A DNA stretch of 64,000 bases from Eutreptiella sp. 'Long Island Sound 2002'. Taxonomy: Eukaryota > Protista > Euglenida. The DNA is taken from assembly GCA_964036045.1 (NCBI GenBank), contig OZ038378.1, positions 94,674,001 to 94,738,000 on the forward strand, given 5' to 3'. The notes beneath the pieces are model-generated. The model ran no database searches, was not told the origin of the DNA, and worked only from the letters and a program-made list of their open reading frames with translations. Shown piece after piece: positions 3,878 to 39,409 of this stretch (position 1 is the first letter of the stretch; each line of letters opens with the position of its first letter). Both the position numbers and the translations under genes were made by a program.

Positions 3878-5224
3878 CTGTAGGGAACTTTTGAATGGGG
3901 AGTCAAAATCGCGCGAATATTGGTCCCTAAACCTACCGTTTCGGCCAAAACAAACCCCTCCAATAGGGTTGGGAAAGCAGCAATATTTCTAAAAAAAATT
4001 TTTAGACAAAAAGAATACTGGTCCTTGCACCCGGAAACCCCCCTTTTTCAGCACCCTAGGGGTCCACGGTGCCCCACAAAATGCCCTATTCCTACCGCAG
4101 GTGTTCCCTGTGTCTGCGGTGCCATTGCGAACCATTTTGTTTGCATACCTTGCATTCGCACAGACATCTATTAGTCCATCCACCGCGCTTGCCTTCCTTG
4201 GCTTTCGTGAACGGCAGCGCGTCGTTCTCGAACGCCGTGGGTCCACGCGTCCTTCGCTAGCTCCAGGTGGCAGGGCCCCTGCCAGAGGACCATCTCGCCG
4301 GCGCGGACCGACACGGGGTGGAGACCTGCCGCGGAGCGGGTCAGGACGGTAGGATGGTGGCTGCCAACGGGGGGACCTGCTTGTGCCGGGGGTTCGGGGG
4401 GGTTGAAGACATCATCCTGGAGGTCCTCCACGACCAACCCCAACTGAGCCTCCAAGCCCCCCCCCCCAAAAAAAAGGAGCTGGCCATACGTGGGGACCTC
4501 CCGTTGCTCAACCGGCCCCAAATTTTCTTAGACGGCCCAAGTTGCCCACCCCCCCCCCCAAACGGACCCCCGACCAAAATGTCGCAGATGATGGTCATCA
4601 AAAACGCGTCCTACAGGGGTGAAATTTTAGCAACAAGCAGCGCACGTCTGTTTCCGCTCGTTTTTGACTACCCCCATATACGCTTTTGGCACTTTGCGCA
4701 CAACACCAACTTGAGGCCGGGCCCTGTGAAATATGGGAAAAACAGTCAAATTCTGAGGAGGAACCCCACGGAACGCATGTGTGTCTATGCACGGTTCAAT
4801 ATCACTACACTAGTGGAGGCACTACTCGTCGACGCATACCATTTTCATCAAAATTTGTTCTGCAGACAGTGAAATACTGAAGTTTGTCTGGAAACAGACA
4901 GATCTCACCAAAACATGCTGCACAGGTACAAAAATCGCAAATAGTTGTCTGGTTCCAGACACACGACACGTAACCTGGTGAAAAATTGCTGTATTCCACA
5001 AAAAGAACTATGGTCCGCAACCAAATGACATAAAAAAGTGACAAAGGACTGTCAGTCTTGTGTTCGGGAAGGGAAAAGTGCCAAAACAAGCCACTGGGAC
5101 CTAGAGAGCAGACTGGCACGCCAACAGGTTGGCACAGTGTTTATATGTTATGAATAGATATAGTGGTCACTGAGCAGGCTTACAACAACAGTGTGCAACC
5201 AACAGCAACTACAACAGAGCACGT

Positions 5225-8200
5225 TTAATTCTTTTTGGAGCCATTGAACCGGTCCTTCCATGCCTGAAACCCAATCTTGGCCTTCTTAGAAGCAGACGAC
5301 TGAGAATCGGTTCCCGCAGCTGCAGACTCGTCAGGAGGTGATGCCTGGGCTTTTTTGTTGCCTTTGCCTTTTGACTGTGATCCGGAGGCTCTGTTCTCGT
5401 CTCCTTTGCGTGTGCGACCACCTTTTTTGCCAGGGCCCCATGACTGCTTCGGTGTACCATACACGGCGTTCTCTGGGGTGGCGCCCACCTCTTCCATGTC
5501 CTCCTCAGACTCCTGCTCTCCCTCTGCCTTCTCAGGCACACAGCTGTAGTCCACAGGGCAACCCTCCGCAAAATTTTCAAACACTGCATTCCAGGGGATA
5601 GGGCTCAGCCCATCAGCGATGCGTAAATTGCTGCATACGAGGGCACCAACGTCTGCAATAGACTCCTGCTCCGTGGGCAAACCCAAAACCACACTGATGG
5701 GTACCGGCATGCGCACTGCCAGACTGCAGGCCAGCTTTACAGAACTACTCATCACCAGGAACCATAGGGTACTTGCTTCTGAGGGTACTGCATCCGCCAG
5801 GTGGTGCATGACAAACCCAACAACCTCCGCACACAGCTGGTTCACCATTGAACCACAAGAAAAGGCAAAGTAGCGAGGCACCTGTATAAGGGAATAGTGA
5901 GTCTGAGACCCCTACTCGTGCAGCTGGACTGGCCGATGTTGTCTGCTTCCAGACAGTTTCCCACAATTTACCCTTCTCGGGACGGATTCTGCCTCATACG
6001 TGTCTGGTTCTAGACAAACTTTAGGATTCAACGGTGCACCCAACGTGACTGTGGTAGCAGGCAGCAGCCAGCAACAGCAGACAGCGATACCTTCTTGGCG
6101 GCGGATCTTTGGAAACAATCCATAGCTCACTGAATCCCATCGAGTACTGCTGTGTGAGAGATCCCAGAATAAAGCAGGCCACGCAAATTGTTGTCAACCC
6201 CTCGTTGTCGTGCAACTTTCGGAGACCATCCAGCACTCCCAAGAAGTCACAAGTGGTGCCAACAATTAGAACAAGCGTCCCAGACACCAAGTTGCAGCTG
6301 ACAACGGAATGGATGCCTTCCATATGTCCGTTTGGGACTTCAACAATGATCAGGCAATACGGCATGCTGGCCACCGTAGAGTGCAGCGGCGTACCAGATG
6401 CCATCCCAGTGATATGCATGACCCCATCCAGGGACTTGCTGTCAGTCACCCCCGCCTCTGGGGCCTCAAACCCAATGTTCACGGTGATGAAGTTGGCATC
6501 AGCAGCGATCTTGACCTCAGGGTTCACCAGGGGACGTTTCAGGGCATCACGGAGGGGAGCATACGTGGGGTCACTCCAGATTGCAGCACTGACGACATAC
6601 GTCGAGGGGGGCCAGCAGTTCTTCTCGGACCACTTCCAATTGTACGTCTTGAAGGTGACATGGGTCTTCGACAGGAGACTCTGTTCACAACGGGCCCGTT
6701 CTGCAAGCGTTTTGCGACTGGGGTCAACCAGGTGGTTGTCCGGGTGGCAGAGATGATGTTCCCACAGACGTGCAGCCTTCAGTTGCTTTGCCTTTTTTGT
6801 AAACATTGGCAGTGACACATTGCTGGAGCCCATGTACTGTGTAACCTCCTCGAGGTCTGGTGGGATGAGGCCTTCGATACATTTCCAAAAGTGCAGCTTT
6901 ACTGGCAGTCCACGCTTTTCCAATCCATCGACAGCAGCCACAGCATTATCCCCCATTACTTGCACCCAGGCGGCAATCGGAAACCAGGCTTTTCTTACAG
7001 TGTCCTGCAGAGCAGACAGGGGTGTTGGCAGACACAACAGGAGGAATTCTGCTTTGACAGGCCGCATCAGTGAAATGTTGTCTGGTTCCAGACTTGGAGG
7101 TCCACGCACAGGCTTTGACAGTGATAAAAAAGTTGTGTCTGGCACCAGACACAAACAGGAGGAATTCTGCTGTGATAGGCCGCATCAGTGAAATGTTGTC
7201 TGGTTCCAGACATGGAGGTCGAGGTACAGGCTTTGACAAGGATAAAAAAAAGTTGTGTCTGGTTCTAGACAGACACAGGAGGAATTATGCTTTGACAGGC
7301 CGCATCAGTGAGTTGTTGTCTGGTTCCAGACATGGAGGTCCTGGCACAGGCTTTGACAAAGATAAAAATACATCAGGTGTCTGGTTCCAGACAACTGTGA
7401 CAGCCTTCGTTGTTGCATGGGACAACTGTCCTAGCCAGGGACGCATGTGCACATAGTTCCTCTACTGCCACCCTGTGCAACACGGGGCATACCAGTGTCC
7501 CCTTCTTCAGTGTATAGCCACCCCTCACGTACAGCACTCCCAGGTGTTCTCGTATGGATTTCTCCTCCAGTTCATTGCGGTCCAGCTCAACACGCAGGAG
7601 TTCCATCCGTGTAGACAGCTTCGGCAAGGTCGTGGCAGACTGCACAGCCTGTGATGCGACGGATGGTCACAACAGTTACCCCCCCCCCCCCGACAAAGCG
7701 GCCGGTCACGCACGAGAACGGGCAGGACGAGATGGACGTCACAGGCGCAGGATATTTCACTGGTGTGGGCATGCAGTGTCGGAGTGCACTGTCACAATCG
7801 ATATACCTGTGACATGCCAGCGATTGACTCCCGTATGTGCAGAGTGACATCCGTACGAACCGCTTGATCAAGAAATTGCACTGACCATGTTGGCGGTTCC
7901 AGATGGGCATTCATGTACCCCCGTGAGATTTGTCGACAGGCCTCGGCGATATGCTGCCCCGATGAGATCCAATACTGCCCCACTGTGTCACGCCACACTA
8001 TGATTCGGATTTTTGCTGCACCTGGTGGATTCCTGCGTAGTTTTGTCATCTTGTCCTGGACAAGATCTTCATCCGCCACTCTGATTTGGCCATACTCCCT
8101 TTTTTTGTCCCATTGCAGTCTACTGAGGGGCAGCAGGACCTCCTAGTCTTTAGTATGGTCACCAAGTTTCACTTGAGCACCTTTACGCTTTGCTGTGTCA

Positions 8201-8412
8201 CCACGTTTTGTGCTTGGAGGGGGCATCGTCCACGGCACTGAATTGGGATGCCAGATGAATTGAGGGGTCTGCAGAGGGTTCAATGCTACCTTGTGTAAGA
8301 TCAGACATGTTGGAACCAACTGGGCGCCAAAAGCAAAATGACACAAGGGCGGGCCTTTTAGCAATGTGATTCTAACTTTCCAGACCTCCCGACGTGAGCA
8401 TACTGTTTTCAC
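5225..8412 (-). pseudogene. Element A second gene: ParB/Srx-like domain + helical region + methyltransferase-like fold + acidic/basic tail (multi-exon, with stops)
   Basis: EVLLPLSRLQWDKKREYGQIRVADEDLVQDKMTKLRRNPP...IRIIVWRDTVGQYWISSGQHIAEA (7900-8142); LWEHHLCHPDN; PYCLIIVEVP...LVSGTLVLIVG (ORF 6021-7154); C-terminal ORF 5225-5881. Homologous segments occur in B, C and F. Confidence 0.8.
7019..7393. repeat. Intronic ~120-bp tandem repeat, each unit carrying two TGTCTGGTTCCAGACA palindromes
   Basis: Palindromes at 7079, 7136, 7197, 7256, 7317, 7378; alternate spacers are near-identical. Confidence 0.85.
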
Positions 8413-8460
8413 ACTCAGACCACATCATGTGCAATACACAGGGGTATAAAAAACACAGTC

Positions 8461-8837
8461 TGTCTGGTTCCAAGCACAACATTTTGCTTTTGAAGTGTGC
8501 AACCGGTGTGAAACAATTTAATGTCCGGTTCCAAACAACCATGTACTGTTCTGGCCATGGACAGGGCATAAACAGTCAGTGCCTGTTTGTAGACACATTG
8601 GCGGTCCAAATACGAGTTAGCTGGCTACGCAATGTGATTCTAGCCTTTCCCAAAACAGAGCAGATGACGTTGCAGGCAATGGAGGGTGCAACACACAGTC
8701 TGTCTAGTTCCAGACACAACAGCTTGACTTCAGCAGATGACATGGGTGAAAAATCATTAACTGTCTGGTACCAGACGGCTACGGTACTTCTGTGGGCACT
8801 AGAGGGGGTACAAACAGTTGGTGTCTGGTTCCAGACA
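8461..8837. promoter_or_regulatory. Array of seven 16-bp palindromes at ~60-bp period with non-repeated spacers, between the two genes of element A (putative operator/loading sites)
   Basis: TGTCTGGWWCCAGACA-like sites at 8461, 8522, 8580, (8642), 8701, 8762, 8822. Function is inferred. Confidence 0.6.
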
Positions 8838-9105
8838 CGCATGCATGCAGTGTTTATTGTGCTGGCTTCCTAAACCGGGTATTCGGTTGGTCAGGGTCAC
8901 ATGTTGTGGTTTTGCGGTGAAAGAGGGATGTAAAGCAATGCAACAGTGCACGTACGCGCGCATCTCATCAGTCCAGCACTGCGTTGGTTGACATTAGTGG
9001 CCCCTGCGGGAGTACCCCGATGCTGCTGTGGTAACCAACCCCAGCCCTGTGTGTGGTTCGATACAGACACCTTTGACGTGCCCTGGCCACTTCGGCGGGG
9101 TGTCA

Positions 9106-11242
9106 TCAGTCCATTGAGTCATCCTCCAGACTTACAACCTCGTACTCCTTCATTTCTTGCAGTAGGACAACAGGTGGTGGTTCATCATCCTGTGCGTCCA
9201 CGTCCACTATCAAATCCCCCACGGACCGGTGTGAACTCGAATCCGAGACAATTGCAGCTTCCGGGGCCTCATCGTCATCATCTGCTACCGCAAATGTTGC
9301 GGCCCGCACCCGCTGAGCCTGTGCATCTCGGCCTGCATGCTCGCGGGGGTCTCTGCCTGGAACAATGGTTCTCAACAACCGTGAGACCTCATCGGTGGGC
9401 GAACGCGCTGCACGTGTCAATGTGGAGAGTGATCTAGTCAACAGTCTGTAGTACAGGGCCACACCGCCGTTGTCCAGTTGTTACCCTGGGAATTTCAAGT
9501 CCTCAGGGACAGCGGTGAATGCTGCCTTCTTTCCACTGTTCCATTCAAGATGGACCATGCCGTTTGTTGTAATGGCCAACAGGAACCCGCGTAGCCGTGA
9601 CGACATGATCGCAACCAGTCCAGTGCGGATCTGCCCCCGCGTCTTCTTTTCCCCGCGCTTTGGTGGTGCCATGCTCAAAAAAAAGGTCCAATGTCTGGTC
9701 AAAAGTCTTCATCTGGGGGTATGCGCGGCACCTAGATCCTAGACGACTCAACATGGCCTCCAGGGGCTCCTAAGCATAACAAAAGCGGGGACGGCGTCAT
9801 TCCAGGGTAACCACAACAGAAAGGCAACACAAAGGGTGCGTACGTAGGGGACATTACAGGCACTGTCCATTGACAAGGCTACAATCAATACCAAACTCAA
9901 CTCCAATACTTTGCGGGCCTGTACGGCCTGTCCCTGCTGGTCGACCATCCCAGTTGCAGTCACGAACCAAGTTTCCAAGGAGGAACGCAGCCAGAATGTA
10001 GAAGTGCAGGAGATTCTTCAGTCCAGTCAACCATACGAGCGGTAGCTTGCGGGATGCCTCTGGAAACAGCATAATTGAAGTTTCCTTGTGTACAATGAGG
10101 TCGTCAACGTTGGGTGTGGCTCACAGTAGGGCATAAAATTGCTTCTCAATGTGCAACAGCTTCGGTTGGCACATGATCTCTTCATCTACCGCGGGCATTT
10201 GCTGCCCAAGGTAGCCCAATATGGGGAAGAACTTACGGTGGATCATGGTACACACATACTTATAAGGGTGCCAACAGCCATATAGCATTGGGAGAGTGGC
10301 ATAGTGCTCAGACAACTGACAGGGGTTGTATGTGCGACTGTAGATGAATTTGGCGAGTCTGTAGAATATATCTTCATCCATCACAAGGGGCATGACGTGG
10401 CATGTGTGAACCTAAATGGCTAGGCATTGTTCCATGATGTGGAGCAAGTCCTCATTGGAGCTGGAGACCAGGTTGGCTAGCGTCAGGGGGTACCATTGGA
10501 GAAAACCAATGCTGTCCCGGTGCACATCTAGTGGAACCCGTACGTATTGGGCCTCTGGTGGATCTCGCCTCAAAGCGTCCACCGCTCGTGGGGACTACCT
10601 GAAACTGGCTGCTATGGTCTGTGCTGTTCGCGGGATGCGTTGGAGAAGATCGTCAAGTGTAAGGAAACCCGGGTACATAGGAATCGCAGTTGTATGCAAC
10701 ACTGACATGGCAGTGACATTCCGACAGCATTCAGATCGTACCGGGTCACTGTAGTACCGTCGGCGATACCAATTGTCAAACTCCTCCACCAGCTGCTTCC
10801 CTGCCATTGATCTCCAGATGGCCTTTGTTCTGGCATGTGCCTGTTGCCCAAAAGGCGGTAACCGGCCCGCGGCAAGACCAGCATGTGACAATTGTCTCCG
10901 CATCCCCCTGGATGCACTTATCATTGAGCCAACAGCCTTTTCCTCTGGAAGAGCCATCTTCCGACACAGTTGCATCATCGTGTACGCCTGGCGTGCAAAC
11001 ACTCCATACCACCTTGGCCACGGTGTTTGCCCATGAGCTTTGATCAACCTTGCCATGCTGCGTCTTGTTCGCCGGTTGACCCTCATCTGTGCGCAGAACT
11101 CCACAAGCAGGGCTGCACCTGGTTCCTCATCGCATAAAGCGGCATCCATAAGCTCCAGCGGTGTACCATACTTCGCTCCACCTAAGAAGTCGCGGAGGAG
11201 ACCAAAGGGATCCGTCGCAGCACTGGTCACCTGGCTCATCAA
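9106..11242 (-). pseudogene. Element A DDE-like transposase (Academ/DUF6589-like motif order)
   Basis: EFDNWY..NVTAMSVL..RVPLDV..WYPLTL..VMDEDIFYRL..LYGCWHPYKY..LVRDCNWDG..YVRT..EAMLSRL across ORFs 10595-11242, 10121-10393, 9854-10072, 9545-9754, 9481-9702, 9106-9462. Several stops and frameshifts. Confidence 0.8.
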
Positions 11243-13119
11243 CAGTGGAATAGAATCAGACTAATTGAAACAGTGAACAACAACGAAACAGACGTGCTCA
11301 GTGACTAGAGAATTGGTGGAGAGTGTTTGAAACCACACCCTGCTCACTCAAATGAGGGTCTTAATCACGGAATTTCAGCAAAATGTGTGGAACTAGACAC
11401 ATTTTCCATGTTATGGGGGTGTACATAGGACGTATGACACTCGGGACAGACACCTGGTGACCCCCCCGCCTGAAAGGTTGAAAATTGTTTAGTTTGTCTG
11501 GAACCAGACACTGCGACCTCAAAAACTCGTTGTGACAGGGGTGGAATTTCAAGAGTGTCTAGTTCTAGACACTTTTCGAAATTCCAAGAGAAAGGTACAT
11601 AGTTGGAGAAAGATAACACAGCACAAAGCAAAACTTGTTCACTGAAGCTTAAAAATTGACCATGCGCAGTCACCTGGGTTTGTGTGCGTGGATATGAGAA
11701 CCCAAAAAACAGGCTGTCAGGCAGCCAAATTCGTATACGCGTCTGAATGACTAAAAAACATGCTATGAAATTTTCCACCGGCCAAAATGGCCTTTTTTGC
11801 GTGTTTTGGGCTCATTTACCGGGGTGGGCAACTTGGGCCGTCTAAGATTTTGCTGGAGCAGCGGGGCAGTGGGAGGATCGAGGAAGGTGGCATTGGGCAC
11901 CACAGTGGCACGCCTCTTGTTGGGGGTCCACTGGGTGAAGGTCCCTTGCATGTCTTGGCCGGGGGGGGGGGACCATGGTGGCGAGTGGTGCTCACCATGA
12001 TGAGGACCTCCCCTTGATTGAGGAGAACCTCGTCACGTCTTTCCACCTGGGACTCCCCCAAGGCCGTTCCCACCTCAATGTTCAGGTGGTATTGTGGGGA
12101 AAGAGCCACAAAAGTCGACAAGTGGCAGTCCCGCCCCAAGTTTTCTCCACTCGTTCCCAGGCCCCCTTGCAGTCAGCGGGACCCAGGGCGTCTCCGTTCA
12201 CTGTATATCCAAGCACATTGGCAAAATTGATGGGCATGGGGGGTGCGGGACGGTCGGGGAGGAGAGAGGGGTTAGGGTTTGCATACGCGTAGGGGTCCAG
12301 CAAGGGGGCGGTTCGCAAAGGAGGGGGAGGGGTTGGCCGGTCCCCGATACCAACTAGACCCACGCATTTGATGAAGCGTGGGAAGAGTGATGCCAGGGAT
12401 GTGGTGGAGTGGGCGCATCTTAGGGTGGAAGGGGAAGATCCCCAAGTAATCCCGCCACTGAGCAGTGCCGGTCTGCCACTGAAAGGGGAAAGAAGAATGG
12501 TCCTCCTATTCAAGGCGATCATATGCGCTGTGGGCAACGGGCGAGGTTAGTGGTCAGATTGACGGTGCAAAACCCGATTTCAACTTGCCCGCCCCATGAG
12601 AAGATATAACCCCCAAGAGAGAGTCAATCTTTTTGGGGGCGGGTATAAGGCAGACGGCCCTCAACTCGAGGAGGGCTAGCAGCAGCTGTTGCCACAGCTC
12701 TATGGCCCACCTCTTGTTGCAAAGCGCACCGGCACGCTCGGGCTCCCTCATGTCAATATGGATGAGGTTGGGGGAGGGGTCCCAACCCTTTGCCCACTCC
12801 ACGACCTCCCCCACAGGCAGGCCCGCTATGTAGGTGGCCTCCTTCAGCGTGTGTGGACGGCGTGGGAGGACTTGATAGTGCGCGTGGGTGTTTGCGGGTC
12901 GCTCGGGAAGGCTACCATTTTGCGAGAGGGCCATTGCGAGATAAATCACAACTGCACAAGGGGGGAAAGGTGCAAAGCTCGAAAAAGGTATCGCACATGT
13001 GCGCGATCTTCGCGCGATTTTCGCGCCAATGAGAATTGTAGGCAAATGCGAATGAGACATGAGTACGACAATGCGAATCTTCGGGTGAAATTAACAATTT
13101 TCTCAGAATCTAAGCTGCG

Positions 13120-15260
13120 TTAACAACCACTTGAACTACATTTTGCGCATTTATAAATTTCTTCGGTTTTTGGCGAAGTAAGCAAGGCAAATAGGCACAA
13201 AGACACGGAATCAGGGGCAAAACCCGCCAAAAGTCGGCAACGAGAGCATGTCCATTCAAAAGTGCGGTGCACAAAGGGTACATGGACGTGGCCACCAGCG
13301 CCTAGAGCGTAGAGAGCAACGACATTGTCCGCTACCTCAACTTCGAACATCTAGAACCCAATTGATGACCTCCAACAGCGGGTCCATCTGCTCCGGGTTG
13401 TACGCCACGTACCGCGGAGACTGAGAAATGCAAGAAGGTAGAATCAATGCATCACCACCTGCAGTATGCTTCGTTTCCAAATAAGTCCCGCGGAATACAC
13501 ACATACCTTCTTCGTGCACTTCTAGGACGACTTTTTGAGTCACGTTATAGCGCGTGGGCAAAAACCGGTCTTCTAGAGTGTGGCGGTGTCATGATAGGGA
13601 TCAACATCAAGGTCGTCACCCACCACCTGCAAATAGCTGCTCACATCTCCAGAATCCCTAGCAACGAGGACCAAGTACTCCTCTTTGGCCATTGCTCTCT
13701 TGATCAGTGGATGCACGCCTGCACACTAACCCTTTGGCAAACTTACGGCCAAGAAGGAGAACTCAATGGAGATGATCTCAGGTGCGACGGGCTTACCAGG
13801 CACGCCATGGATCACGTGGACGACTTTCCCGGCAGCATCAGTTTCATGTGGGAGCGTAACTCGATGGCGATCAAAACTATCACTACTGTCAATTTGAGGA
13901 GCAGAAGATGAAAATTAGAAACTAGTTTTATCGAACCATGCTGCATGTGCTGGCAATACTGACAAGGAGTACTTTCAATATCCTATGCCGTACTGTCGGG
14001 ACCCTGACAAACAATCCCATGTAGCCTACTGTCAGAATCCTAACAAATGACCGCATGTGGAGGGCTGCGGACCATATCGTTGCAGGGATGAAAGCTTTAG
14101 CCGAAAGTTGCCGGAGAGGCTCATAGCCGTTGTTGGACCACGACCCTACCTTCATTATACCTCCAATCGGAGGATGCAGACGTTGTACGGACCACCGCCA
14201 TTGGGGTGTGAGGCGAACAGCAAGATCTAACCTAGGAAGCTAATTGAGAATGCGCTGCCACTATACACGGGTCCCTAAACAGGCAGGCATTTGATAGAGA
14301 ATTGCACCAACAAATCCAACGAACAGGTGCAAGAGGTTGCAACACTTCTCGAATAATGCGCGTGCTCGTTGCTTGGATTCACTAGATGCTAGTCGTACAA
14401 ATGATTGGCCTTCATTACCTGACACGGCTTGTGCATTGCTGCAGAGTGAAACTGGTACCGTTGATAAGGGCCACAACCTTGTGCACTTCAAGCAGACCCA
14501 GCACTGCCAGAAGTCCACCTGAAAAGAATAAGGGCAGTTATCGTGTCACGATCTTGACAACACGTTGTGTATTTGTGTTAGGATTATATACTGGATATAG
14601 GATTATGGTAGTGGCACGGTATTTGTCTCACAACATGATTGTATCCCACACACTATTGTTAGGATCCCAACAGTGGCAAGGTATTTGTTTTAGAATAAGA
14701 TTGCATGATGGACGCAGTACTGCAAAGATCCTGACAGTAGCATGGTGCTATATCAAACAACTATATGCCAATTGACATCGAACACACCGTGTAAGAAGGT
14801 CACAATTATAGCTCAACTCACCCGCAGGCGGCGGATCCTCCTGCACGTTGATCCTGATCTCCGCCACGCGGTCCGGATCCACATATCGTGTTTGGCCCAG
14901 GGTTACGCCATCCTGTGACCTTAGTGCCGTCTGGGGTACCACCTCCTTGCGTTAAATCAAGCGGTCAAGCGTGGCCTCATCAGGGTCCCAGGGCGCGGAT
15001 GTGTCGCCGTACATCATTCCACCGTTCTTGCCGCACTGCTGCTTCGTGGCCTTAGGTCCCGATTGCTTTGTGTCATCGCCTTGATCGATGTTCGTGTAGC
15101 TGAACTTCATGTGGCTAGTCATTTGTGCACCCTCTCCTCATCCTCAGATGCTCTTGGGAACCTTCCTGCTGTGCCCTGTTCTTACGCCTCTTGTGTCGCC
15201 CACCCTCTCCACCCCCTGAGGATTGGGATGAGGGGGATGGCGAAGACATGAATGGCTCGT
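13120..15260 (-). pseudogene. Element F ParB-like gene, 5' and middle exons
   Basis: TLGQTRYVDPDRVAEIRINVQEDPPPA|gtgagt (14824-14942); LYD*HLVNPSN (compare LWEHHLCHPDN of A); IISIEFS...EEYLVLVARDSGDV (compare LIIVEVP...GTLVLIVGTTCDF). The GQH exon was not found. Confidence 0.65.
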
Positions 15261-15469
15261 GACAAGACCTATTCTTTCTGAGCGACCAACACCAAACCAT
15301 GCAGAAGGCCCTCTATAGGCTTTCAAGGCAGAAAAAAGTTGGGAATTTACAAAATCTTCTTAAAAGGCAGTTTTTTGTAACTGTCCCCTTTTTCACCACT
15401 ACCAAGTGTTGCAGCTTCAAATGTCATTTTCGGAAAGTACAACATACCACCACCAAATAATAAAACAAA

Positions 15470-16000
15470 TTATGGACACCAGGGACCAAGGCCATCAATT
15501 AGGCCATATCTGTAATATGCATGACTTGGTCCATTACATTCAGCTATGATGTTTGCCAGGTCATCTGCGTTTTGACCTGCTGTCAAGATCCCGATAGTTC
15601 TTGAAGGAACTGTACATGAACCGTCCACCTCATCTCCAGCCCAAGTGTGACGTGCATACGACGATGCACACATTAAAACATACAACACGATTCTTTCGGC
15701 TTTTTGTGCAGTTGGTTGTCCACGTTTTAGGATCCTAACGAAGCGAATGAGCGATGCGGTTGTGTAGGCTATTATGTGGGGTTGGTTTGCTAGTGTGCAG
15801 TATGAGGCTCCCAATGTTGCTCTTAGAGGCACAGCTTCGTGTGCAAATCTTCTCGATTACGCACGGTAGAACGACCACTGGGCCAATACGTGGATGGGCA
15901 TAGATGTCAAGTGCAAAGCGGCGAGCAGGGCGCTAGGGTGCCATCACAGGGGTTCCAAGTTATATGCTTAATCACACTCCACCACCCATGCGCACGTGCA
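15470..16000 (-). pseudogene. Element F transposase 3' fragment
   Basis: YARHTWAG resembles LVRxCNWxG and HGWWSVIKH resembles YGxWHxYK of A/B/C; same orientation, upstream of the ParB-like gene. Confidence 0.4.
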
Positions 16001-16684
16001 TTACTGTCAAGATCCTGACAAACATCCGGAAAAAAATCCGGACGCAACCATGTACGCATACTGTCACGATCTTGACACCAAAAGAACACTAAGCACAAGC
16101 ATGCATAGCCCATTTGCCATTCCCAGGATTGTACAACCAATGTGGTTACACATCATCAGTAATTATTTCCTGCATTATTCAGCAAATGTTTGGATGCCAA
16201 GAAGTACTCGTGCAGTCCCGATAGATGATCATCACTAGACAAAGCATAAAGTGCGTGAACATCTAGGGCACCTTGGGGGCCTGGTTTGGGAGCAGGCTCG
16301 GGTGGGGGCTCAGCCGCATATCTCGGTTGTCTCGGTACTGGTTGTGGTTTTGTTTTGGACCCGGGGGCGGTGGGCGCAGGCTCCTCATTTCTGAATGCAA
16401 ACTACCCCCCTCCCCAAAATAACTGTTGGCCGGAGAATCCTTTTGGGGGGTGGGGGGGTAGTTGGCGTCCTAGGACCCGCGGAATCCCCCCCCCCCGCGA
16501 GGATTTGGGTTTTGATTTGGGTTAGGGTGCGCGTCGCTGGTTAACCCGTTTGGCCACTGCACACAGCCTTTGTTAGGCCGGTCCATCATCCGCAATATCT
16601 GCTGCATTTCGCCCAGGCATGCCTTGAAAGGGCCCCTTAGTGCCTGTGTGTAATGGAACCTTATGCCTAAGACAATGCAACATG

Positions 16685-17110: not shown

Positions 17111-17150
<40 letters not shown>

Positions 17151-26034: not shown

Positions 26035-29000
26035 CACACACATGCACACACACGTTTTGATGTAGGCACGGGCACTGTGGGGCTGCCCTCCCTTCAAGCG
26101 TTGGTGCGGGGGGGCGGGGGGGCTGTGCTTTTGTCACACATTTTTCAGGGGGGCTTGAGAACTACCTTGGGGGGGGGGGTTTGAACTTAGGGGTCTGGGA
26201 GGGTGTTCTTTTCTTTGTTTCACAGGTGGTTTTTTATTGGATTTTGTTGATATTCGACTGACAAACTGCAATTTCAGGTTGCACGTTTGCCATGCATTGC
26301 TGTGCAGTGTTGTGGTGCGTTGTGGTCTGGTTAGGTGTAAATGGTGTGGTGTGTTGTGTTGTAGTCCGTTGTGGTGTGTGATCTACTATTGTGTGATGTG
26401 GTGTGTAGTGGCGTTGTGTGTTTTGTTGTGGTCACATGAGGTGCGCTGTGGTGTGGTGCGGTGTCATGTGCTGTGGCCTCCTGTCATGTGGTGTGGTGTG
26501 TTGTGGTGTGCCGTGCTGCGCTGTGGTCTGTTGTAGTGTGTGATTGGCTCTGGTGTGTTGTACTGTGTGGGGGGGGGGGGGGGGTAGTGTGTTGTGGTCA
26601 CATGACGTGCGCCGTGGTGTGCTGTGTTTTCATGCGGTGTGGTTGGTGTGGTTCGTTGAATGGTGTGTTGGTTGCTTGGCAGGTTGGGTTATTGGGCCGC
26701 TCGTGTTATTTGTTGGGTGTTTAGCCGGTTGGGGCATGCTCCAACCCGTGGTGTGTGCTATGGTATGCTGTTGTATGCTCTCTGATGTCATGTGTGTGGG
26801 TACACATGTATCTGGTGCCATTGCAAGGGAGGGGGGGGGGCTGATAAGCGGCTACCTTTTTTGTTCCAGCGGCGTTCTAGGGAATTGTTCTAGGAGCGTT
26901 CTACAGCGCTCTAGCGGCCCACTAGACCGCCGCTAGAACGCCGCTAGAACAGTTCCCGGGAATGCCCCTAGAACCAAAAAAAAGTAACTTCTTACCAGCC
27001 CCCCCCCCCTCCCTTGGAATGGCAGCAAATACGTGTGTACCCACACACATGACATCACAGAGCATACAACAGCATACCACAGCACACACCATAGGGTGCA
27101 TACACCCCACAACATTCTCCAACCGGCTAAACACCCATCCAATAACCCAAGTTGCCAAACAACTCAACGTAGCTACACATAACACACACCACAACAAACT
27201 AAAACACAGTGTCATGTGGTGTGGTGTGGTGTGGTAGGGTATCGTGCGATAGGGTGACCTATCCGGTTGGTTGAATTGTGTGTTGGTTGCTTGGCAAGTT
27301 GGGTCTTTTGGCAGCTTGGGCTCTTTGTTGGGTCTTTGGCCTGCTGGGGCATGTTGTGTGGTGTCCGCACCCTGTGGTGTGTGGTGCTGTATGCGCTTGT
27401 ATGCTCTTTGATGTCATGTGTGTGGGTAGCCATGTAATTACTGCCATTGCAAGCGAGGGAGGGGGGATAAGAAGTTACTTCTTTTGTTCTTGCGGCGTTC
27501 ACCGGAATTGTTCTAGCGGCGCTGTAGCGCTCTAGCGGCCGCTAGAGCGCCGCTAGAACAGCGCTAGAACGCCTCCCTAGAACGCACCTAGAACAAGAAT
27601 AGTAACTGCTTATCAGCCCCCCCCCTTCCCTTGGAATGGCAGTAATTACATGGTACCTACAAACATGACATCACAGAGCATACAACGGCATACGGCACCT
27701 AACACCACAGGGTGCAGAAACCTCAAAGCGTGCCCCAACCAGCCAAACACCCAACAAACAACCCAAGCTGCCAAACAACCCAACCTGCTAAGCAACCAAC
27801 ACACCCTTCAACCGATCACATAGGCAACCCTATCGCACGATACCCCACCCCACCACACCACACCGCACCACATGACACCAGACCACACCACATGACACCC
27901 GACCGCACCACATGACAACATAGCACACCACAGGGCACATCATGTGACCAAAACACACTACCCCCCCCCCCCCGCACAGTACAGCACACTACAATAGATC
28001 GCACACTACAGTTGACCGCAGCACACCACAACACACCACACTACATGACACCACTTTACACCTTACGGGACCACAACACACCACAACACTGCACAGCATT
28101 GCATGGCATACCTGCAACTTGAAATTGAAGTTTGTCACCTGAATATCCAAAAAATCCAATAAAAAAACCACCTGTGAAACAAAGAAAAGAACACCCTCCC
28201 AGACGCCTGAGTTCAACCCCCCCCCCCGCACAATGTAGTTCTTGAGCCCCCCCTAAAAAATGCGTGACAAAAGCAAAGACCCCCCCCCCCCCAACCAACG
28301 CGTGAAGGGAGGGCAGCCCCACAGTGCCCGTGCCTATGTCAAAATGTGTGTGTGCATGTGTGTGTGTGTGTGCGCGCACATATGACTACACATGTACCAA
28401 ATGTGATGGTTTCTATGTGTCTATGTGACATGGAACCCCCCTCCTTCCCACATTTGTGTCTTTTACTTGCCAAATGTGTGTTCATGTTTTTGTTCCAGCC
28501 TCGTTCTAGGGAAGCGTTCTAGCGACGTTCTAGCGCCGTTCTAGCTGGGCGGCGCTAGAATAGCGCTAGAACGTTACTAGAACGGTTTTTTGTGCTTGTT
28601 GAATTTCAGGTCAAAAATGTGTTTTTCTGAAAAACAAGGTATGGATCCCCTAGTATGGTAACAGGGGTCCAATTTGCACCCTTCATACCCCCGCCCCCCT
28701 ATGCCCATGGGTCGGGGCAACCACTACTTTTTTTCGTTCTAGCCACTGTAGCGGGTTCTAGGCTAGAAGGACGTTGGGTCTTCTAGCGTGCACCAAGGGT
28801 TAGAGCCTTCACCGTCATGATCCCAACCGTGGCAAAATCAAAAATATGTGTATCGCTTCTTGACAGCATCTTTTGAAATGCCATGATCATGTCACCTCAT
28901 GAGCATGTGACATAGTCTGTACAATGGCGCAACTTCTTGAAGAGTCATCTTTGGAAACTTGGCATGGTTATGATTCAGAATGCAGAACCAAAAGGCTCAT

Positions 29001-30599
29001 GTTTAACTTTTGTGAAGATGTGCTTGGAGCTACGTGTAGGACGGAGCACGCATCGGTCAATTCAAGAACTTGAACACGACATCAATAGTAGTAGTTGGTG
29101 GCCTGTTGATGTTGCAAAGCATTTGTTCAACATATGGACGGCCATGCACACTCGGGCTGCTGTGAAGAGTCGCCACCCGGTGGAGCATGTCCTGCAGGGT
29201 TACCGCCAGAAAGGGTGCATCTTGCCGCACGGAGGCTTGCAGCAATGCACGGTGAAACCGTTGCAAGAAAGGGCATGTGAAACTGCTGCTTTTGTGTGGA
29301 CCAAATGTGATCATCACGCTTCGTTTGTTGGGATGCACTCAAAGCAGAGGAACGTACCAGGCCCATTGGGATGCGGACATTGATTGTACTACTTTTGTTG
29401 TGTTACCGTTAATGGAATTGTTTCATTTTGATGGTCATCACAATCCGGCGCAGCTGGTTGACAGGGTGTATTTGTGCATTCGGCATCTGCAGCAAGCAAA
29501 CAATGACCTGACGACCGTACTACAGAATATTATCAATGGCACTGTGAACAAGAAGGATCTTCGAGTGTCTAGATGTGCGCAGACCGCAAGCAGAACCACC
29601 AAAGTGGAAATCCTTGTTGTTGACTTCACATCGCACATCTTTCAACGAGGAACTCGTTGCTATTGTGAGACTGTTGTGTGAGATACACGCCCACACAGGA
29701 CGTGCTTTACCTCTTTCTTGTGAATATGAAGGTGCACCTGTAGGTACTCATATTTCCGTACACTGTCAGGTCTGAAAAGTACAACATGCACCAAGTGAGG
29801 TTTTCTTTACCCATGCATTACGGCATTTGGCGCCCCTACAAGTACGTAGCAATTCTCATGTGGAGACAATTATATCCCATGTTCAATTGCCTTCTCAAAA
29901 TTTACCTAAAAGTAGGAGATGAGGTACTGTGTTACCGCTAGCTGGTTTATTTAGAGGAACTATTTGATGCAATCTTTTAGCCAGTCAATCAACGAAGGCA
30001 ACTGTGGACACCGCTGTGTGTTGTTTATGTTCTATTTAAGCCCCCACCACAAGTGACAGAGAGGTGATCGGCAAGATAAAAGTGTTGCAAACTCTGTCGT
30101 ACACGTATAGTCCTATTGTGTTCCACCTAGGGTACAATATGTGCTCTTGTACGTGAGATGGAAAGCAACAACACACGGGGAGTCAATCCAAAGGTGTTTT
30201 ACAACATTGTTTTACAACATTGTGTTATAGTAATGCGTGCGATGTATGGTACAGACTGCCTATGTACCTGCGCCCCACTTGGAAATGTGAAGTGGGCTAA
30301 GTGGTGTTTTTCAAGGGGTTTCATCTGAAAACGTGTGGCTTTCGGGGGTGGGTTGGGGTTTTGGAATGTCCCCAAAGGGATACCAATCCCTAGTCCAAGA
30401 CAATTTGACCGGGGTTTTTTTTTTCAACGGCTCAGTTGATTGAGCACCCCGACTACGCCGTCACTGAGCCGTCACTGAGCCGACTCACTTAGCTCTCACT
30501 TAGCTCTCGCTTAGCCCTCACTCAGGGCGCCAAATGGCTCACTGCGCGCTCACTGGGCGCTCACTGAGAGCTAATTGAGGGCTCACTGACGGCTTACTG

Positions 30600-32564: not shown

Positions 32565-32720
32565 GCACCAGGGTGTTTGTCCCATCCCCCCCCCCCCCGG
32601 GGATGCCTCCAAGGTGTTTGTCCCATCCCGCCTTCCCCCCCGAGATGCCGCCAGGGTGTTTGTCCCATCATCCCCCCCTGCCCCCGAGGGTGCCTCCAGG
32701 GTGTTTGTCCCATCCTGCTG
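32565..32720. repeat. Short tandem repeat ccagggtgtttgtcccatc x4 (~42-bp period)
   Basis: Copies near 32568, 32610, 32651, 32696. Confidence 0.8.
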
Positions 32721-33789
32721 CATCACCCCCAGTCCCATTGTCCCCTCCCCCCCCCCTGCGGCTGATCCTGTAATATGCGCTGCAGCCCCCACCTCGCCAC
32801 AGCCATGGCACTGACCCTGTTTTCCGTCACTAGTGGGAATTGGCCTATCCCCCCTCACCCCCTGCCCACAACCACCAGTTTGTGGCGGCCAACGGTCAGA
32901 CTTAGGCGGCTCAAGTTGCATGGTCAAAAACGAAGGAGAAGGTAGGAAAATGACAGGTTTCCAAAGGCATCAAAAAATAGTTGTTTTGATGGATATTTGT
33001 AAACCGTCGCAAACAAGTATGGCGGAATAAATATTTCTATAAGAATGACGTGTCCCATGGGCGAGACAGGGAAAAGTATTGTTTGGTGACCATTCTTTGC
33101 GCGAGGCCTCGCGCAAAGACGTTCATTTGTGTCACATTAATGTGCTACAGCACGACGCATTAGGCAAGTTGTCGAAAAATGGAACCCTGTCGTATTTATA
33201 CACGTAACTTAGTACCATTATCAGGATTGCGTGATAGAGATGGATCTATTAACGAATAAACTGCAACAATGGTGTACCCAAGAATCTTGAAAAGTATAAA
33301 TGTTCCGGAACAAACTGCAGTTTCAAGCGCGAGGCCTCGCGCATGGAACGGCGCATGAGAAACATTAAAGTTTCGGTGATCATTGCGCGAGGCCTCGCGC
33401 AATGGATCTCATAAGCGCTCATAGAAACCAAAAATGGAACAGATCCACCAACTACACAGCATGTGCATTCCCTTGATGCGGCGCTGCTGCATGGGCGCCC
33501 ATACAGGTCCCGCCGGCATCTCCAGTTTTCATACTGTGGTCACCGCTGGCTTCGCTGCCCAACAGCGATGGTAGCGCGCCGCAACTGGCTACCGCAATCA
33601 GGATTAACTAGTCAAATGTGGGATCACCAGACAGTTACAGTTAACGGAAAATGGTGCATGCGACAAGCGAATCACAGAATAATTGGTCGCGCGAAAACTG
33701 TGTGACAGGTTGATGTTTCAAATCAAGAAAGTTTTTCAAACAGCGATCTTTACGTGGATACACATACGCAATTATTCTTCACAGCAACA

Positions 33790-35775
33790 ATGCCCCTGCG
33801 AAAAGAGGTGGACCTTGAGAAGACAGTGGCCGCAGCATCTGGAGTTTTCCGCGATGTCTGCTCAGAGGAACCGCCGTACCACACGGCTGAAGAACTGTGG
33901 GAAGGGCTAAAACAGGGGGACGAGGGCGCGCGATTGTTGTTTGTGTTTTTTCTGCGTCTGCGCAAAAATGAACGGACGCATTGCAGCGTTGAAAAGGCGA
34001 TTGCGGCAGAAGGCAAGAGATGGGTTGGTGTTTTGATAGAGGAGGCCTGGCGCCTTGATTTCCTGATGCGCCACCGCGCAGTTCCATACGAGGGAAAACC
34101 AAAGTCAGTTGTTGCGGTAGAGGGAAGTAGGGCGCAGCGTCGCATTTTAGCAAGGTCAGGTCTGGCGCGATAAAGCGCACCTTCGCTGAAGGAGAAGGCC
34201 GCAGTCAGGTTACAGACTACATGGAACAAAATACACCAACAGTGGGTTGTGTTGTGGATGGACAACTGGTAGAACAAACAGTTTACCACAAATCCTGACA
34301 AGAACGACAAAAGCCTGAACGCAACAGCGTTGGCTGTGTTGCTACTGAAAGATGCACCGCGCTACTGGCATGGTCATCCTAGCCTGGAAGAGCTTGAACG
34401 GCGTGTTCCTGTTGTTGCACGCATGCTAGGGAACACCGAGGGAACATTTGCACGTATCCTGCGTGATCTAGGATTTGCAAGCACGCGTCCTGTTGTTCGA
34501 AACATTAGGGCGCCGCTTGACATTATTCCCCCTGTACCTGCCAAGAAACCACATTGGCGACCCCTTTGTCTAAGTAAAGAAAACGTTAGCGGCAACGTCT
34601 CGCTGCTTAATCTATTGCAATTCACTAGGGACTTGGCGCAGCACACTCGACCAGTCGTGCCTGTTTTATGTGATGAGAACATCCATTACCGCATTTGTAA
34701 GATGATGTACGGTGAAAAAACAACGGGTTGGAATGTCCGGCTTTTCTTGCGGTCACACCCTATATTGTATGGTTTCTGCCACGCGTACAAGTTTTGCGTT
34801 ACACAAACATTTCGCTCATTTTGGCCGATCGTGACTTTCTTCCGTAAAGGTTTGTTGCGCAGCGGTGACAAAGTCCCCTGTTTTCCCAAGCTGATCACAA
34901 TGGAGATAACCGTTGGCGCACTGCTGTTGGGTATGGGCCCCCACATACGGCGCCTTAACAGAAAATGTCATTCCCTTGGGCTGGCACGTCCTGTAAATCG
35001 GCGAGGACGCCTCCGTTACGCTGTGTGTAAGGCCATAGAGGTTCTGTTAACACAATACTGTCCTATGTTACTATACCTAGGTCACCTCGTTAGACAGTGC
35101 AATTGGGCCGGGGAGACGGCCAACACGGGTGTTTTTGCTTCTGAGGGATTGCAAATTGTTATGTGTCTGTTAGACCGTTTGAACATGGGGGACACACTTT
35201 TAAAATACGAACGCACTGTTGCAACTGCGCTATTGTGCCACACTGCATGACACACAGCCATGGCTGGACAGGCTTTTGCCGAGGAGTTTTGTGAAAGTCT
35301 GCTTTCCAGCCTTGTGACAAAGAAGGGCCAAAACAGAGGTGCAGTAACCATTGAAGATGTTGACGATCTGTATCATCTCATCACTATCCGCAAAGAAGGT
35401 CACGGGGTGAACGTCTGCAAAATCCCCAATTCCTTTGTCAATTCCGTGCGTCAGCGGTTAACTGCTTACTTGAACGCAGAGCGTGTATATGTGCCTTGGG
35501 TTAGGTGGTGTGCTGAGCCTACTTGTACCATTCAGGCGCATTGGCCGCGCAGGGGTGTACCTAACTTTCCACCGTCTCTTCTAATTCCAAAGGGTTCTAA
35601 CCACTACAAACAGGTCCTTGTGTCTGTGTTGTTGGTGCTAACGCAGCAGGGGCCGCTTAAGGGTGGTTTTAAGCGAAAACTGTGGGAGCTGATCCCCCAG
35701 CGCAGTGTGTTGGAGGAACAGAGAGAGGCCGACACACTGCCAAACGTTCGAAGAAGATTGGAGAACATGCAGTGA
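33790..35775 (+). pseudogene. Element C DDE-like transposase (single frame, three internal stops)
   Basis: MPLRKEVD..VLWMDNW*..SLNATALAVL..RAPLDI..WRPLCL..LCDENIHYRI..LYGFCHAYKF..LVRQCNWAG..KYERT..FAEEFCESLLSSL; stops at 34171, 34270, 35248. Confidence 0.88.
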
Positions 35776-36010
35776 TGCGCTAGGCCTCGCGCAAACAGCA
35801 TGAAACAACAGGTTAGTACACCCCCTCTCTTGCGCGAGGCCTCGCGCAAGGTTGACAGTCAAAAGCAGTGCCCAGCCCCTTCAGTTTTGCATTCTCAACC
35901 ATACTGTACTCGTATTCGCTAAAATTGCCTCACATATGCATTATCGACGACGATTTTGACCCTTTTCAATGTTATGTTTCCTTCAATACAGGCTTTCTCC
36001 TTATCGCAGA

Positions 36011-38797
36011 ATGGCAAGCCCCGCCAAAAAAAACAACCGAGGAACGAGAAGATACCGACTATGACCCTGGGACCTCAGGATCGGAGGCTGGAACACCAAA
36101 GAAGGGGCGTAAGAAGAAGGAAAAACCAGATCCTGGCTTAACCTTGGGTACTAACATCGAGGACCACCTGAAACCGGATGGGAGGCAGGTGGAGGTTGAG
36201 CTGGACAACGTGAGAATCGACCAGGAGAAGACAAAGGGGCAGATTAGACGGAAAGATATGAAGTTACTGCAGAAGCGTATTGAGTGACTCGAAGCAGCAC
36301 CGCCAACAGGCCCATTACACGTCGTTCTCTGGGAAGATAATAGTATGTTGCCAACCGACTGTTCGCTCTTCTCGTTGCGCGAGCCCTCGCGCATGGACGT
36401 GTCTCATATTTGCAGATGGCGATTATTGGTGTGTATCTGGACAGCACAGTGTGGAAGCGATTGCGAAGATTCGGGAGAAGCGACGCACAGAGTGTCTGGA
36501 TCTGCAGCACTGGCATACTACATGCATCGCCGATATTCTGAAGCCTACGACACCGTGGGCCTTTCGTGCAAAGCTGGCGGGACAAGCACAAGGAAGCGCA
36601 CAAGACGTTGAGCCAATACCCCTGTATGAGGCAGCAGAAAACCTCATTCGATGTGTTGAAGATCAGCGGCAGCGAGGCCTGGCTGACACGTATAGCCATC
36701 TCAAGATCGCCATTGTGGATGCTGTGCAGATGAGTGCCCTGGTTCCAACCGCTGAACTGAAGCAGCCTGGTCAATTCGTATGTTCATTAATCGTTGTTTC
36801 GATGCTGTTCCTTGCGCGAGGCCTCGCGCATAACGTTGTCACTTTCAGGACAAAACGTATAAATTGTGGAAAGATTTTATGACGTTTGCCTACTATGCTG
36901 GTCCGGAAGCTGTGAAAGGTCTGCAGAAGTTCCACGACAAAGAGGAGAAAGTCACGAAGAACGCGCTGAAGAAACTGGACGGGATCCTGCTGCCGGAGTT
37001 CTACAAGAAAGTGGCAGAAGTGATGCAGGAAGAAAAAACAACCCTTAAATCCTTGCCGAATTCGATTGACGACATCATCCTTGACCAGTGGGTCTCAATG
37101 CATCTGGACCACCCGCACAACGGCCAGTACGTTCGACCTGAGAAAGGTGTGTACCATCGACGCGACGTGGGTTCCGCTTCTGCATTGGTGCGCCGCACTT
37201 TCTCCATTTCTGTTCTTTAGCCAAAGACATGCGGACCCGCAAAGAGGTTGCTGCACTTGGAAGGCCTGCCCTGAAGGTGACTCTTGGTACATGGGGCTAT
37301 TGGCGGGAACCTGAAGGCAAAAGTCGCGGTCCATGGCCGGCATGGAAATCCATGATTCGCGCACCACTGTGGCAGGTGGCAGAGAAAGGCAAACCCGCCT
37401 CCTTGAAAATCCTCAACGTCCAAAAACTCCTGGGTCAAGAGCCTACCAAGAGCCGTGTGGTCCCCCCAGCTGCTGGCGTTACTGGTGACTTCAAGACAGT
37501 GGAACAGCAGGATCCATTACTGTCAAGTCAAACTATCACAATTGAGGCGACCCGAATTGCAGCGTTGGCCCACGATCCCCTGAGGCGGTTTATTGAGATT
37601 GACAAGAACCTGATTGTCATCAACGGCGACATATTTGAACAACTTGCTCCTGAGATGATGTGCCCAGCCTGGCTGTATGAAGAGATGGCGCGTGCCGATA
37701 CCCTTATCTGCGGCTCTCAAACTGCTGTTGACAACATGTTCGACGTGCTGGAGACGGAAGCAGATAGGCGTCTCAACGATGATTTCAACGCGCCGCGCAT
37801 GGCTAACATGTTGCGTGTTCCCATCTTCAGTTGGCCAGTCAAACCGAAGCCTGCAGGGGATCCTACAACGTTTGACGTTCGCTGGTTGCTGATTTCGTCA
37901 CCGGAGAGCTGGCCGAGAAAGGTATAATTCCCTCATTACGTCCGCTCTTTGCGCGAGGCCTCGCGCAATAACTTCTCCCTCATTGCAACTTCCGAATTAT
38001 CTGACGTTTGGACCTACTCAAGTGAGGAGATGGATCCTGTTGAATTTGGCGGTCACCTTCCGATGACGACGGTTATGTGGTATTTCGACACTCACCTCTT
38101 TTACCTGAAGCAGGATAAGAGCTTCAAGCCTGCGTTTGTGTTCATTGACCATCAGCCGGATCTGGTGTGCAAGATCGCGTCCATCGAGCCGGATTCTCGC
38201 ATGTACCTTCTTGGTGTTACCTCCGACAATCTCTCCGATCGGGTCAACAGAGTGCAGACTCAATTGAACCACGTATTGACACAAGGGTCGAAACTGGACG
38301 TGTCTGGTGATTGGGAGCAGCAGGCCAACTGGTCAAACCGTGGTATTCCCCTTTGGGTTCGCGATGACAATGTGGGTTCTGATGCGTTGTCGCTGAAGGA
38401 GGAAGAGACTGTTGAGAAAGGTCAAGCTGCAGAAGCACTGGCCCCTGCAAAGCGGAAGTCTACTGGTGGGGAACCAGCCCCCAAGAAGAAGAGGACTGCC
38501 TCCAAGCCTCAGGCAGCGAAGTCGGTTACCGGTGCAGAATCCGACGAGAGCGATGGGGATGAAGAGGGGGAGAGCGAGGAAGAAGAGGAGGAGAAAGCGC
38601 AGGTCTCCCAGGGCAAGGCGGCGAAGAAAGTGGCAGCGAAGCCGAGGTCCGAGAAAACCGGGGCCCGAGCTCCATTCAAGCAGCGAGCCCGTCATTCCCA
38701 ACCAAGAAGCGAGCCCGCAAAGCCACCGCCTAAGGGTAAGACGTCCGTTGCTAAGGCATTGGGTTCTAAGATGCAAACTGTTCCGAAGAAAAAGTAA
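36011..38797 (+). pseudogene. Element C ParB-like / methyltransferase-like gene (5 exons)
   Basis: QVEVELDNVRIDQEKTKGQIRRKD..LHVVLWEDN|DGDYWCVSGQHSVEA..RAKLAGQAQ; WVSMHLDHPHN; IVINGDIFEQL..SDVWTY..LPMTTVMWYF..AFVFID..RMYLLGV. GT-AG introns at 36343-36415, 36778-36848, 37167-37220; a fourth starts at 37922 with a degenerate acceptor. Confidence 0.85.
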
Positions 38798-39409
38798 TTT
38801 CTTCGCTTGTTCTGATATATTATGCGCGAGGGCTCGCGCTATGCATTCCTCTTCGACGACCTTTATGCTATCACCTTGTGCGGCACATTTTTCTCTGTGA
38901 TGCATTTTATTGCGCTGTTGTGTTGGTGTTTGCGCGAGGCCTCGCGCAAAGAAGGGGTGCCAAAAAATGCTTCTTGTCGTGCAGCGTGCAACATGGTTTT
39001 CGAAAATTGGTTTTCCAAAAGATTGAAAGCTCATGGGTGTTTTTATTGCAAAGCATAAGTGGTATAGGAAACAAAAAGTTGTGGTTTTCCCAAAAAAGAA
39101 CTTCATTTTGGTGGAAATAAATCATTTTCCCGGGCAGTCGGTTTTGTTGAAAAAAAAGGAAAATGGACCAGTTAATTGCTTTTCACAGGATTTTAGGTTC
39201 TTGTGTTTTAGGTCCCCCCCAAAAGGACTATTTTTTCGCAGTGCCGTGGAGAGGCAGTTTTGGGGCGCATTTTGACCATGCAACTTGAGCCGCCTAAGTC
39301 AGAGGGCCCAGCCATCCACCGAGCTGAGGGCTCACTGAGCCGTTTCGCGCGCTCACTGTGAGCGCGCCAAACGGCTCAGTGAGCTCTCAATTGGCTCTTA
39401 GTCACTTTA

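Follow-up and report, generated by a model that had tools for sequence, protein, structure and literature searches.

We show here that a 64,000-nucleotide stretch of the euglenid Eutreptiella sp. 'Long Island Sound 2002' (assembly GCA_964036045.1, contig OZ038378.1, positions 94,674,001 to 94,738,000; hereafter the window) harbors three complete cut-and-paste transposons, A, B, and C, which are related subfamilies of one euglenid family and each of which carries a private palindromic word, dispersed through its non-coding DNA. Two genes were found in each element, a DDE transposase gene (gene 1) and an accessory gene (gene 2), the N-terminal domain of which is predicted to adopt a ParB/sulfiredoxin fold. 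The gene 2 protein is probably the reader of these palindromes. More tentatively, we propose that it may bind only the palindrome of its own subfamily and might thus keep its own copies active in the face of host silencing.

The limits of A, B, and C were set by terminal repeats and target duplications, independently of the palindromes. All three elements start with CTTAG and end with CTAAG, their inverted ends match over 23 to 29 of 30 bp, and each of the three is flanked by a 5-bp target duplication. The limits of C are confirmed by contigs from public runs, which end loose at 32901 and 39299, and by one contig that represents the empty-site joint 32893-39302. The elements and their palindromes, in positions of the window, are:

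4527..11846, minus strand: element A, complete, with 26-bp terminal inverted repeats CTTAGACGGCCCAAGTTGCCCACCCC and target duplication ATTTT
4885..11571, no strand: 19 A palindromes TGTCTGGWWCCAGACA, at 4885, 4946, 5940, 6001, 7079, 7136, 7197, 7256, 7317, 7378, 8461, 8522, 8701, 8762, 8822, 9050, 11384, 11495, and 11556
19560..25928, plus strand: element B, complete, nested in a different repeat, with ends CTTAGGCCACGC and target duplication AGATG
19766..25493, no strand: nine B palindromes CTGGGCGAAATTTCGCCCAG, at 19766, 19836, 19905, 20017, 22353, 22423, 23862, 25405, and 25474
32901..39298, plus strand: element C, complete, of a high-copy family, with 29-bp terminal inverted repeats CTTAGGCGGCTCAAGTTGCATGGTCAAAA and target duplication TCAGA
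33097..38949, no strand: ten C palindromes TTGCGCGAGGCCTCGCGCAA, at 33097, 33325, 33383, 35775, 35830, 36375, 36812, 37949, 38822, and 38930

Confinement of the palindromes was counted in the window and in a metagenome locus, L001, with chance expectations taken from 64-kb Markov shuffles. At up to one mismatch, all 14 sites of the A motif TGTCTGGNNCCAGACA lay inside A (expected 0.0), and at up to three mismatches 19 sites were found in A (4.2 expected in the window). The B word at up to five mismatches and the C word at up to four were likewise found only in their own elements (9/9 and 10/10 sites; expected 0.4 and 0.0, respectively). The word of a fourth, older member, F, matched at up to three mismatches at 15 sites in the F segments and at six in A (expected 0.6), the latter because no more than two arm positions distinguish the A word from the F word. 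Every palindrome of A (19/19), B (9/9), and C (10/10) is non-coding, with non-coding positions making up 40, 35, and 29% of these elements; three C palindromes sit singly in introns of C gene 2, and the outermost sites of the three elements lie 196 to 435 bp inside the ends. The original prediction, made from the letters of this window, had listed these palindromes at counts and places that agree with ours within 2 to 3 bp, and had described them as essentially confined to their own element and located mostly upstream of genes, between genes, in introns, and at the 3' end. For A, B, and C, both descriptions hold in the window, whereas confinement of the F word is partly circular, since the F segments were drawn after the motifs had been seen.

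The words are dyad symmetric with conserved arms. Deviations from the dyad were one-sided in 69 cases and compensated in three, indicating that the words are not selected as hairpins, and a hairpin function was rejected on this ground. An origin from miniature inverted-repeat transposable elements was also rejected, as neither duplications nor repeats were found next to single sites.

Neighboring sites are spaced in a subfamily-specific manner. Eight of the 11 close gaps in A (below 65 bp) measure exactly 61 bp and the rest 57, 59, and 60 bp, and the spacers of 57 to 61 bp fall into seven classes without mutual homology. All four gaps below 100 bp in B measure 69 to 70 bp, again with unrelated spacers. 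Under a simple uniform null chosen post hoc, spacing this regular has a probability of less than 5e-6 in A and 7.5e-5 in B. The close gaps of C are 55 and 58 bp, and F is looser (25 to 71 bp). Among the A sites, tandem duplicates are limited to two pairs ahead of gene 2 and the six-site cluster in intron 2. Another gap, of 108 to 113 bp, recurs once per element, at 11384-11495 in A, 19905-20017 in B, 38822-38930 in C, and 14544-14657 in F.

Over the terminal 19 bases, the ends of A and C are identical at 17 positions, while their palindromes are unrelated, and no half-site of the palindromes was found in the ends of A, B, or C. An orphan end of the CTTAG family, identical to the A and C ends at 14 of 19 positions, was noted at 52765-52788, with no partner or transposase found. 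The observed/expected CpG ratio is 0.55 to 0.67 in older copies, compared to 0.91 in C; this loss, which methylation of these elements by the host would be expected to produce, suggests a silencing mark set by the host.

Gene 2 is located and structured as follows:

5225..8308, minus strand: A gene 2, with the ParB-fold N-terminal domain in exon 1; exons at about 8308-7807, 7639-7493, 7004-6093, and 5881-5225, with putative GT-AG introns
22623..25270, plus strand: B gene 2, ParB-like, broken; putative introns at 22997-23083, 23410-23491, and about 23816-23954
36011..38797, plus strand: C gene 2; introns at 36343-36415, 36778-36848, 37147-37220 (seen spliced), and about 37922-37991, with a leader joined at the AG at 35990-35991

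Family C gene 2 is transcribed and spliced. Intron 37147-37220 is skipped in one contig of run X23 (presumed RNA), and after splicing the gene model forms one frame save for one stop and two one-base shifts, which are not present in other copies. A leader heads two low-depth X23 contigs, joined at the AG acceptors 35990-35991 and 37087-37088. In cDNA libraries, leader letters can stem from the primer. This leader equals the euglenid spliced leader at all but one letter, as given in the available part of the published description (PMC3621762), and makes a euglenid the most likely host. No splice joint was seen in run X20, which speaks neither for nor against splicing. Use of the acceptor at 37087-37091, which lies in exon 3 and was seen in one contig, would yield a transcript encoding the C-terminal half alone, lacking the ParB domain.

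That gene 2 encodes a ParB-like protein, as the original prediction had proposed, is sustained at the level of a predicted fold. A profile of the N-terminal domain compared with the PDB retrieved sulfiredoxin in six of seven rows (E values of 0.019 to 0.045), and a structural model of the family A domain, with a predicted local distance difference test score (pLDDT) of 68, matched ParB 6sdk (E value of 4.9e-4) as well as PadC (Z score of 8.8, root mean square deviation of 2.9 over 97 aligned residues). Sequence searches of the PDB gave no match for a single N-terminal sequence or for a profile of the C-terminal part. Of the ParB boxes, the first, QPR-like one persists in all four members, where it reads GQ[I/D/T]R. 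At the place of GxxRxxA, aligned to GERR, the proteins read GQHIAEA (A), GQHIYKP (B), and GQHSVEA (C); ENxQRE is absent from A, B, and C, and its likely place reads AGMSQ, AGLHQ, and AGQAQ. Both motifs are needed for CTP use in ParB, according to the available part of a recent account (PMC11229316). A helical region follows the N-terminal domain.

Gene 1 was located in all three elements:

9109..11239, minus strand: A gene 1, DDE transposase, disrupted by frameshifts and stop codons
20131..21939, plus strand: B gene 1, DDE transposase, with two internal stops
33790..35775, plus strand: C gene 1, DDE transposase of 661 amino acids, with three stops in this copy; other copies are intact, e.g., P0003

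The transposases of A, B, and C share 28 to 34% identity and belong to a family of 1,413 clusters (50% identity; E values up to 0.001). Among 60 aligned rows, D158 is conserved in 57, D295 and H331 in all 60, and the candidate catalytic glutamate E498/E499/E502 in 56 to 57; these near-invariant residues identify gene 1 as a DDE transposase gene. Family C is abundant, with 72 clusters at 75% identity or above, 667 member sequences (fragments included), and many intact frames of 661 amino acids. A further subfamily, G (proteins P0075-P0077 and P0080-P0083), is 38 to 48% identical to C and occurs on long contigs of the same kind. Both the transposase and the C palindrome were absent from the viral contigs searched.

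Among 30 language-model neighbors of gene 1, 29 contained DUF6589, with which gene 1 shares the D..D..H..E layout, whereas the Pfam DUF6589 model (PF20231) matched none of 60 family members at E values up to 0.1. Proteins of the DUF6589 type are, we presume, tied to the Academ superfamily. Target duplications of Academ elements are given as 3 to 4 or 9 to 10 bp in the available part of a published survey (PMC10045372). Considering the 5-bp duplications in all three elements and that no helicase or nuclease gene was seen in A, B, or C, membership of the gene 1 family in Academ was rejected; the likeness lies in language-model features and does not extend to the Pfam match or the duplication length. 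No Pfam family was detected on gene 1 or on the gene 2 exons and open frames of A, B, and C, and the PDB sequence search returned no match for the transposase.

The older member F has been split by nested insertions, including A, and was traced together with a decayed transposase, D:

2747..19285, no strand: about 16 F palindromes TGTCAGGATCCTGACA, in segments 2747-3562, 13994-16077, and 19055-19285, split by nested insertions including A
3180..15122, minus strand: likely F gene 2, decayed and interrupted, with a GQTR box near 14890, a weak profile match at 13821-13576 (E value of 0.03), and a lysine-rich tail near 3400-3180
28919..30225, plus strand, continuing at 44581-44760 past an insertion: D, a decayed transposase of the gene 1 family, likely F gene 1 in divergent orientation

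F and D likely stem from a single older element whose genes are divergently oriented, since the insertion at 19500-28799 separates D from the F words at 19055-19285. Ends of this element were not found in the window.

A metagenome scan of 381 candidate stretches yielded one relative, L001, with an intact transposase (36% identity). It carries a word of its own, the fifth in this set, AGTCCGCG-N5-TCGCGGACT, in four copies, of which three lie 3' of the transposase gene (none in 200 shuffles). This word was not found in the window, and gene 2 was not recognizable in the 3.1 kb of L001. The L001 and C words have CGCGA-N4-TCGCG in common, and L001 was grouped in the C clade with a support of 100 (FastTree). 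One L001 palindrome, at 1599-1620, is part of the transposase reading frame, where it falls in frame within a variable loop; over 20 bases it is identical to the non-coding copy at 2344.

In the mechanism that we favor, the transposase would act on the conserved ends, and a dimer of the gene 2 protein would read each dyad, with two dimers possibly bridging a site pair at the spacing of the subfamily (61 or 69 to 70 bp). The clamp-and-slide CTP cycle was probably lost, and many scattered sites would cover the element in place of spreading. The outcome would be a protection of promoters, introns, and ends, similar to that conferred by the VANC proteins of Arabidopsis VANDAL transposons. Gene 2 is preferred over the transposase as the reader because the A and C ends are nearly identical while their palindromes are unrelated, and because it carries a domain from a family working on palindromes. 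Should the gene 2 protein be the reader, anti-silencing or activation is a fairly likely role; anti-silencing is favored because the places of the sites and their partial spread by duplication match the VANC pattern, together with the CpG loss. It is tempting to go further and speculate, although we regard this as doubtful, that a widespread, unclassified DDE family turned a bacterial ParB into a CTP-free reader for self-recognition, its subfamilies being told apart by a two-part code of palindrome and pair spacing, which evolves against a background of unchanged ends bound by the transposase.

Several observations weigh against the mechanism that we favor. An HHalign comparison with 28 ParB rows gave a helix-turn-helix a probability of 5% (pairwise E value of 0.008) in a test that is insensitive, true N-terminal homology scoring 0.1%. 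Nor was a modifying enzyme, through which binding might counter silencing, recognized in the C-terminal alpha/beta half, which was modeled at a pLDDT of 39 without a fold match, and a language-model search with this part gave only scores below 0.8. This half is colinear with 11 beta-class DNA methyltransferases over 127 columns, which is not significant in the likewise insensitive HHalign comparison (E value of 0.11), and DPPY is absent from it. The fourth L001 word lies inside the transposase frame. Moreover, the B word has a GCGA-N4-TCGC core like that of C, yet B falls outside the C clade, and the FastTree tree did not resolve the positions of A, B, and D, nor A and D as sisters. The predicted co-divergence of motif and protein therefore rests on one pair, C with L001. 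More generally, the proposed cognate pair of protein and palindrome retains the predicted ParB fold and the subfamily-private, non-coding dyads, whereas its resemblance to parS and the CTP clamp found no support.

Another observation of this kind, from the available part of a report on a plant system, is that transposases can activate cognate copies (10.64898/2026.08.24.746577). It lends weight to the possibility that the palindromes serve as subterminal and internal binding sites of the gene 1 protein, with gene 2 having some other role; the A, B, and C transposases are sufficiently diverged to recognize different words, and the L001 word follows the transposase tree. We nevertheless consider this improbable, given that the ends, the known kind of transposase substrate, are alike where the words differ and contain no half-site, and that the only domain of a palindrome-working family is in gene 2. 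A less remote, although still unlikely, explanation keeps the gene 2 protein as the binder of cognate palindromes but makes it a transposition helper, which would fold the element to join its ends, license cognate copies, or confer target immunity. Conserved ends would permit cross-mobilization, so that a second layer of specificity would be useful, the fixed spacing suggests an architectural complex, and all three complete elements have clusters within 200 to 440 bp of each end. However, many sites are located well inside the elements, in introns or ahead of gene 2, and immunity fits poorly with A sitting within the span of F, considering how little their words differ.

The palindromes might instead be bound by a host factor, act as RNA structures, or be a neutral by-product of local duplication, and the tandem origin of the six sites in the second intron of A and of the two pairs before gene 2 is in line with the last of these. 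This is very improbable in view of the confinement of each of the five words, which are unrelated or related in part, to a single element, the equal length of unrelated spacers, the lack of compensatory changes, and the presence of sites outside transcribed parts. Least probable of all is a true ParB/parS system, in which a CTP clamp would load at the sites, slide, and condense the element. The predicted ParB N-terminal fold, the GQ[I/D/T]R box in all four members, and the 16-bp TGT..ACA form of the A and F words speak for it. This form is not shared by the B and C words, and the parS consensus had no match at up to three mismatches among the sites, which led us to reject parS likeness as evidence. 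Coating by a CTP clamp is not borne out either, with GxxRxxA altered and ENxQRE absent in A, B, and C; furthermore, no ParA was found among the two genes of these elements or by Pfam on open frames, and a sliding clamp would need few sites.

Apart from these elements, the window contains further repeats and a host exon. The element that received C (30295-44580) has arrays of an 11-bp GCTCACTGAGC-type unit at both ends and inside (30450-30600, 39320-39400, 40850-41030, and 44380-44560), and a minus-strand frame near 43100-43300 in it shows what we take to be a 2OG-Fe(II)-oxygenase-like pattern, with no Pfam match. A non-coding repeat family with ends CCCTTGGTAC..GTACCAAGGG occupies 16685-18840, 19500-28799, 45985-46530, and 49829-52242; it contains many GTTCTAG/CTAGAAC words, including GTTCTAGCCTAGAAC palindromes, and B is inserted in one copy. 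A host pantothenate kinase exon is found at 1852-2031 on the minus strand (Pfam Fumble, E value of 9e-22), and positions 59485-59545, 60490-60530, and 62750-63580 hold TTAGGG tracts that resemble telomere repeats, along with a tandem array whose units measure about 100 bp.

If our reading is true, transposons of eukaryotes have adopted a bacterial partition fold to distinguish self from non-self, and orthogonal readers of 16 to 20 bp of DNA would be gained. With at least four protein-word pairs side by side in one genome, an expressed gene, and intact copies, self-recognition is directly testable. In the literature searched, which lay outside most subscription journals, Repbase, and preprint supplements, we came across no account of this transposase family, nor of dispersed palindromes private to subfamilies or of site pairs at fixed spacing in euglenids. 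Relative to the original prediction, the non-coding location of all sites, the subfamily-specific spacing, the one-sided deviations from the dyad, the fifth word in L001, and the conservation of the A and C ends next to unrelated words are new.

The euglenid gene can be placed, as a variant, in the class of ParB-like accessory genes proposed for algal transposons, and the general idea is already in print as a hypothesis. In the available parts of the respective reports, PAG3 of the red-algal Plavaka transposons (Bostrychia) is ParB-like, adjoins inverted-repeat arrays, and was proposed to bind its own element (10.1101/2025.02.11.637652), and for the ParB-like accessory protein of Sola1-1_Ec32 from Ectocarpus both binding and modification of its own element were proposed, such proteins being described as what may be a new class, present in green, red, and brown algae (PMC12477816). 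PAG3 is likewise an accessory gene of a eukaryotic DNA transposon with a ParB-like N-terminal domain beside inverted repeats. Compared by description, PAG3 elements are 17 to 19 kb long and of the EnSpm type, with three accessory genes, tandem arrays next to PAG3, and a 2OG-oxygenase domain, whereas the euglenid elements are 6 to 7 kb long, have one accessory gene and another transposase family, and disperse their sites into introns, with one word per subfamily and a fixed pair spacing. Sola1-1_Ec32 has a DNA methyltransferase domain, for which gene 2 shows only the non-significant likeness without DPPY, and the string 'palindrom' does not occur in the main text of that report (PMC12477816).

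With bacterial ParB/parS, Noc, and KorB (6sdk, 7ol9, and 8qa8), the euglenid system shares the predicted N-terminal fold and multiple palindromic sites. It differs in the loss of the CTP motifs, the lack of ParA, words unlike parS, and a spliced gene in a eukaryotic transposon, and on the motifs tested it is not a member of the ParB/parS partition systems. In Arabidopsis, VANC binds family-specific motifs in non-coding parts of VANDAL elements, and both binding and demethylation are proven, according to the available part of the report (PMC5735166). Its motifs, 8 to 9 bp long, non-palindromic, and same-oriented, are found in Mutator-like elements, and no ParB fold is described in that part (PMC5735166). 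Common to both systems are private motifs in non-coding regions and introns, which spread partially by tandem duplication and differ between related families. By analogy, the euglenid system would thus work like VANC/VANDAL.

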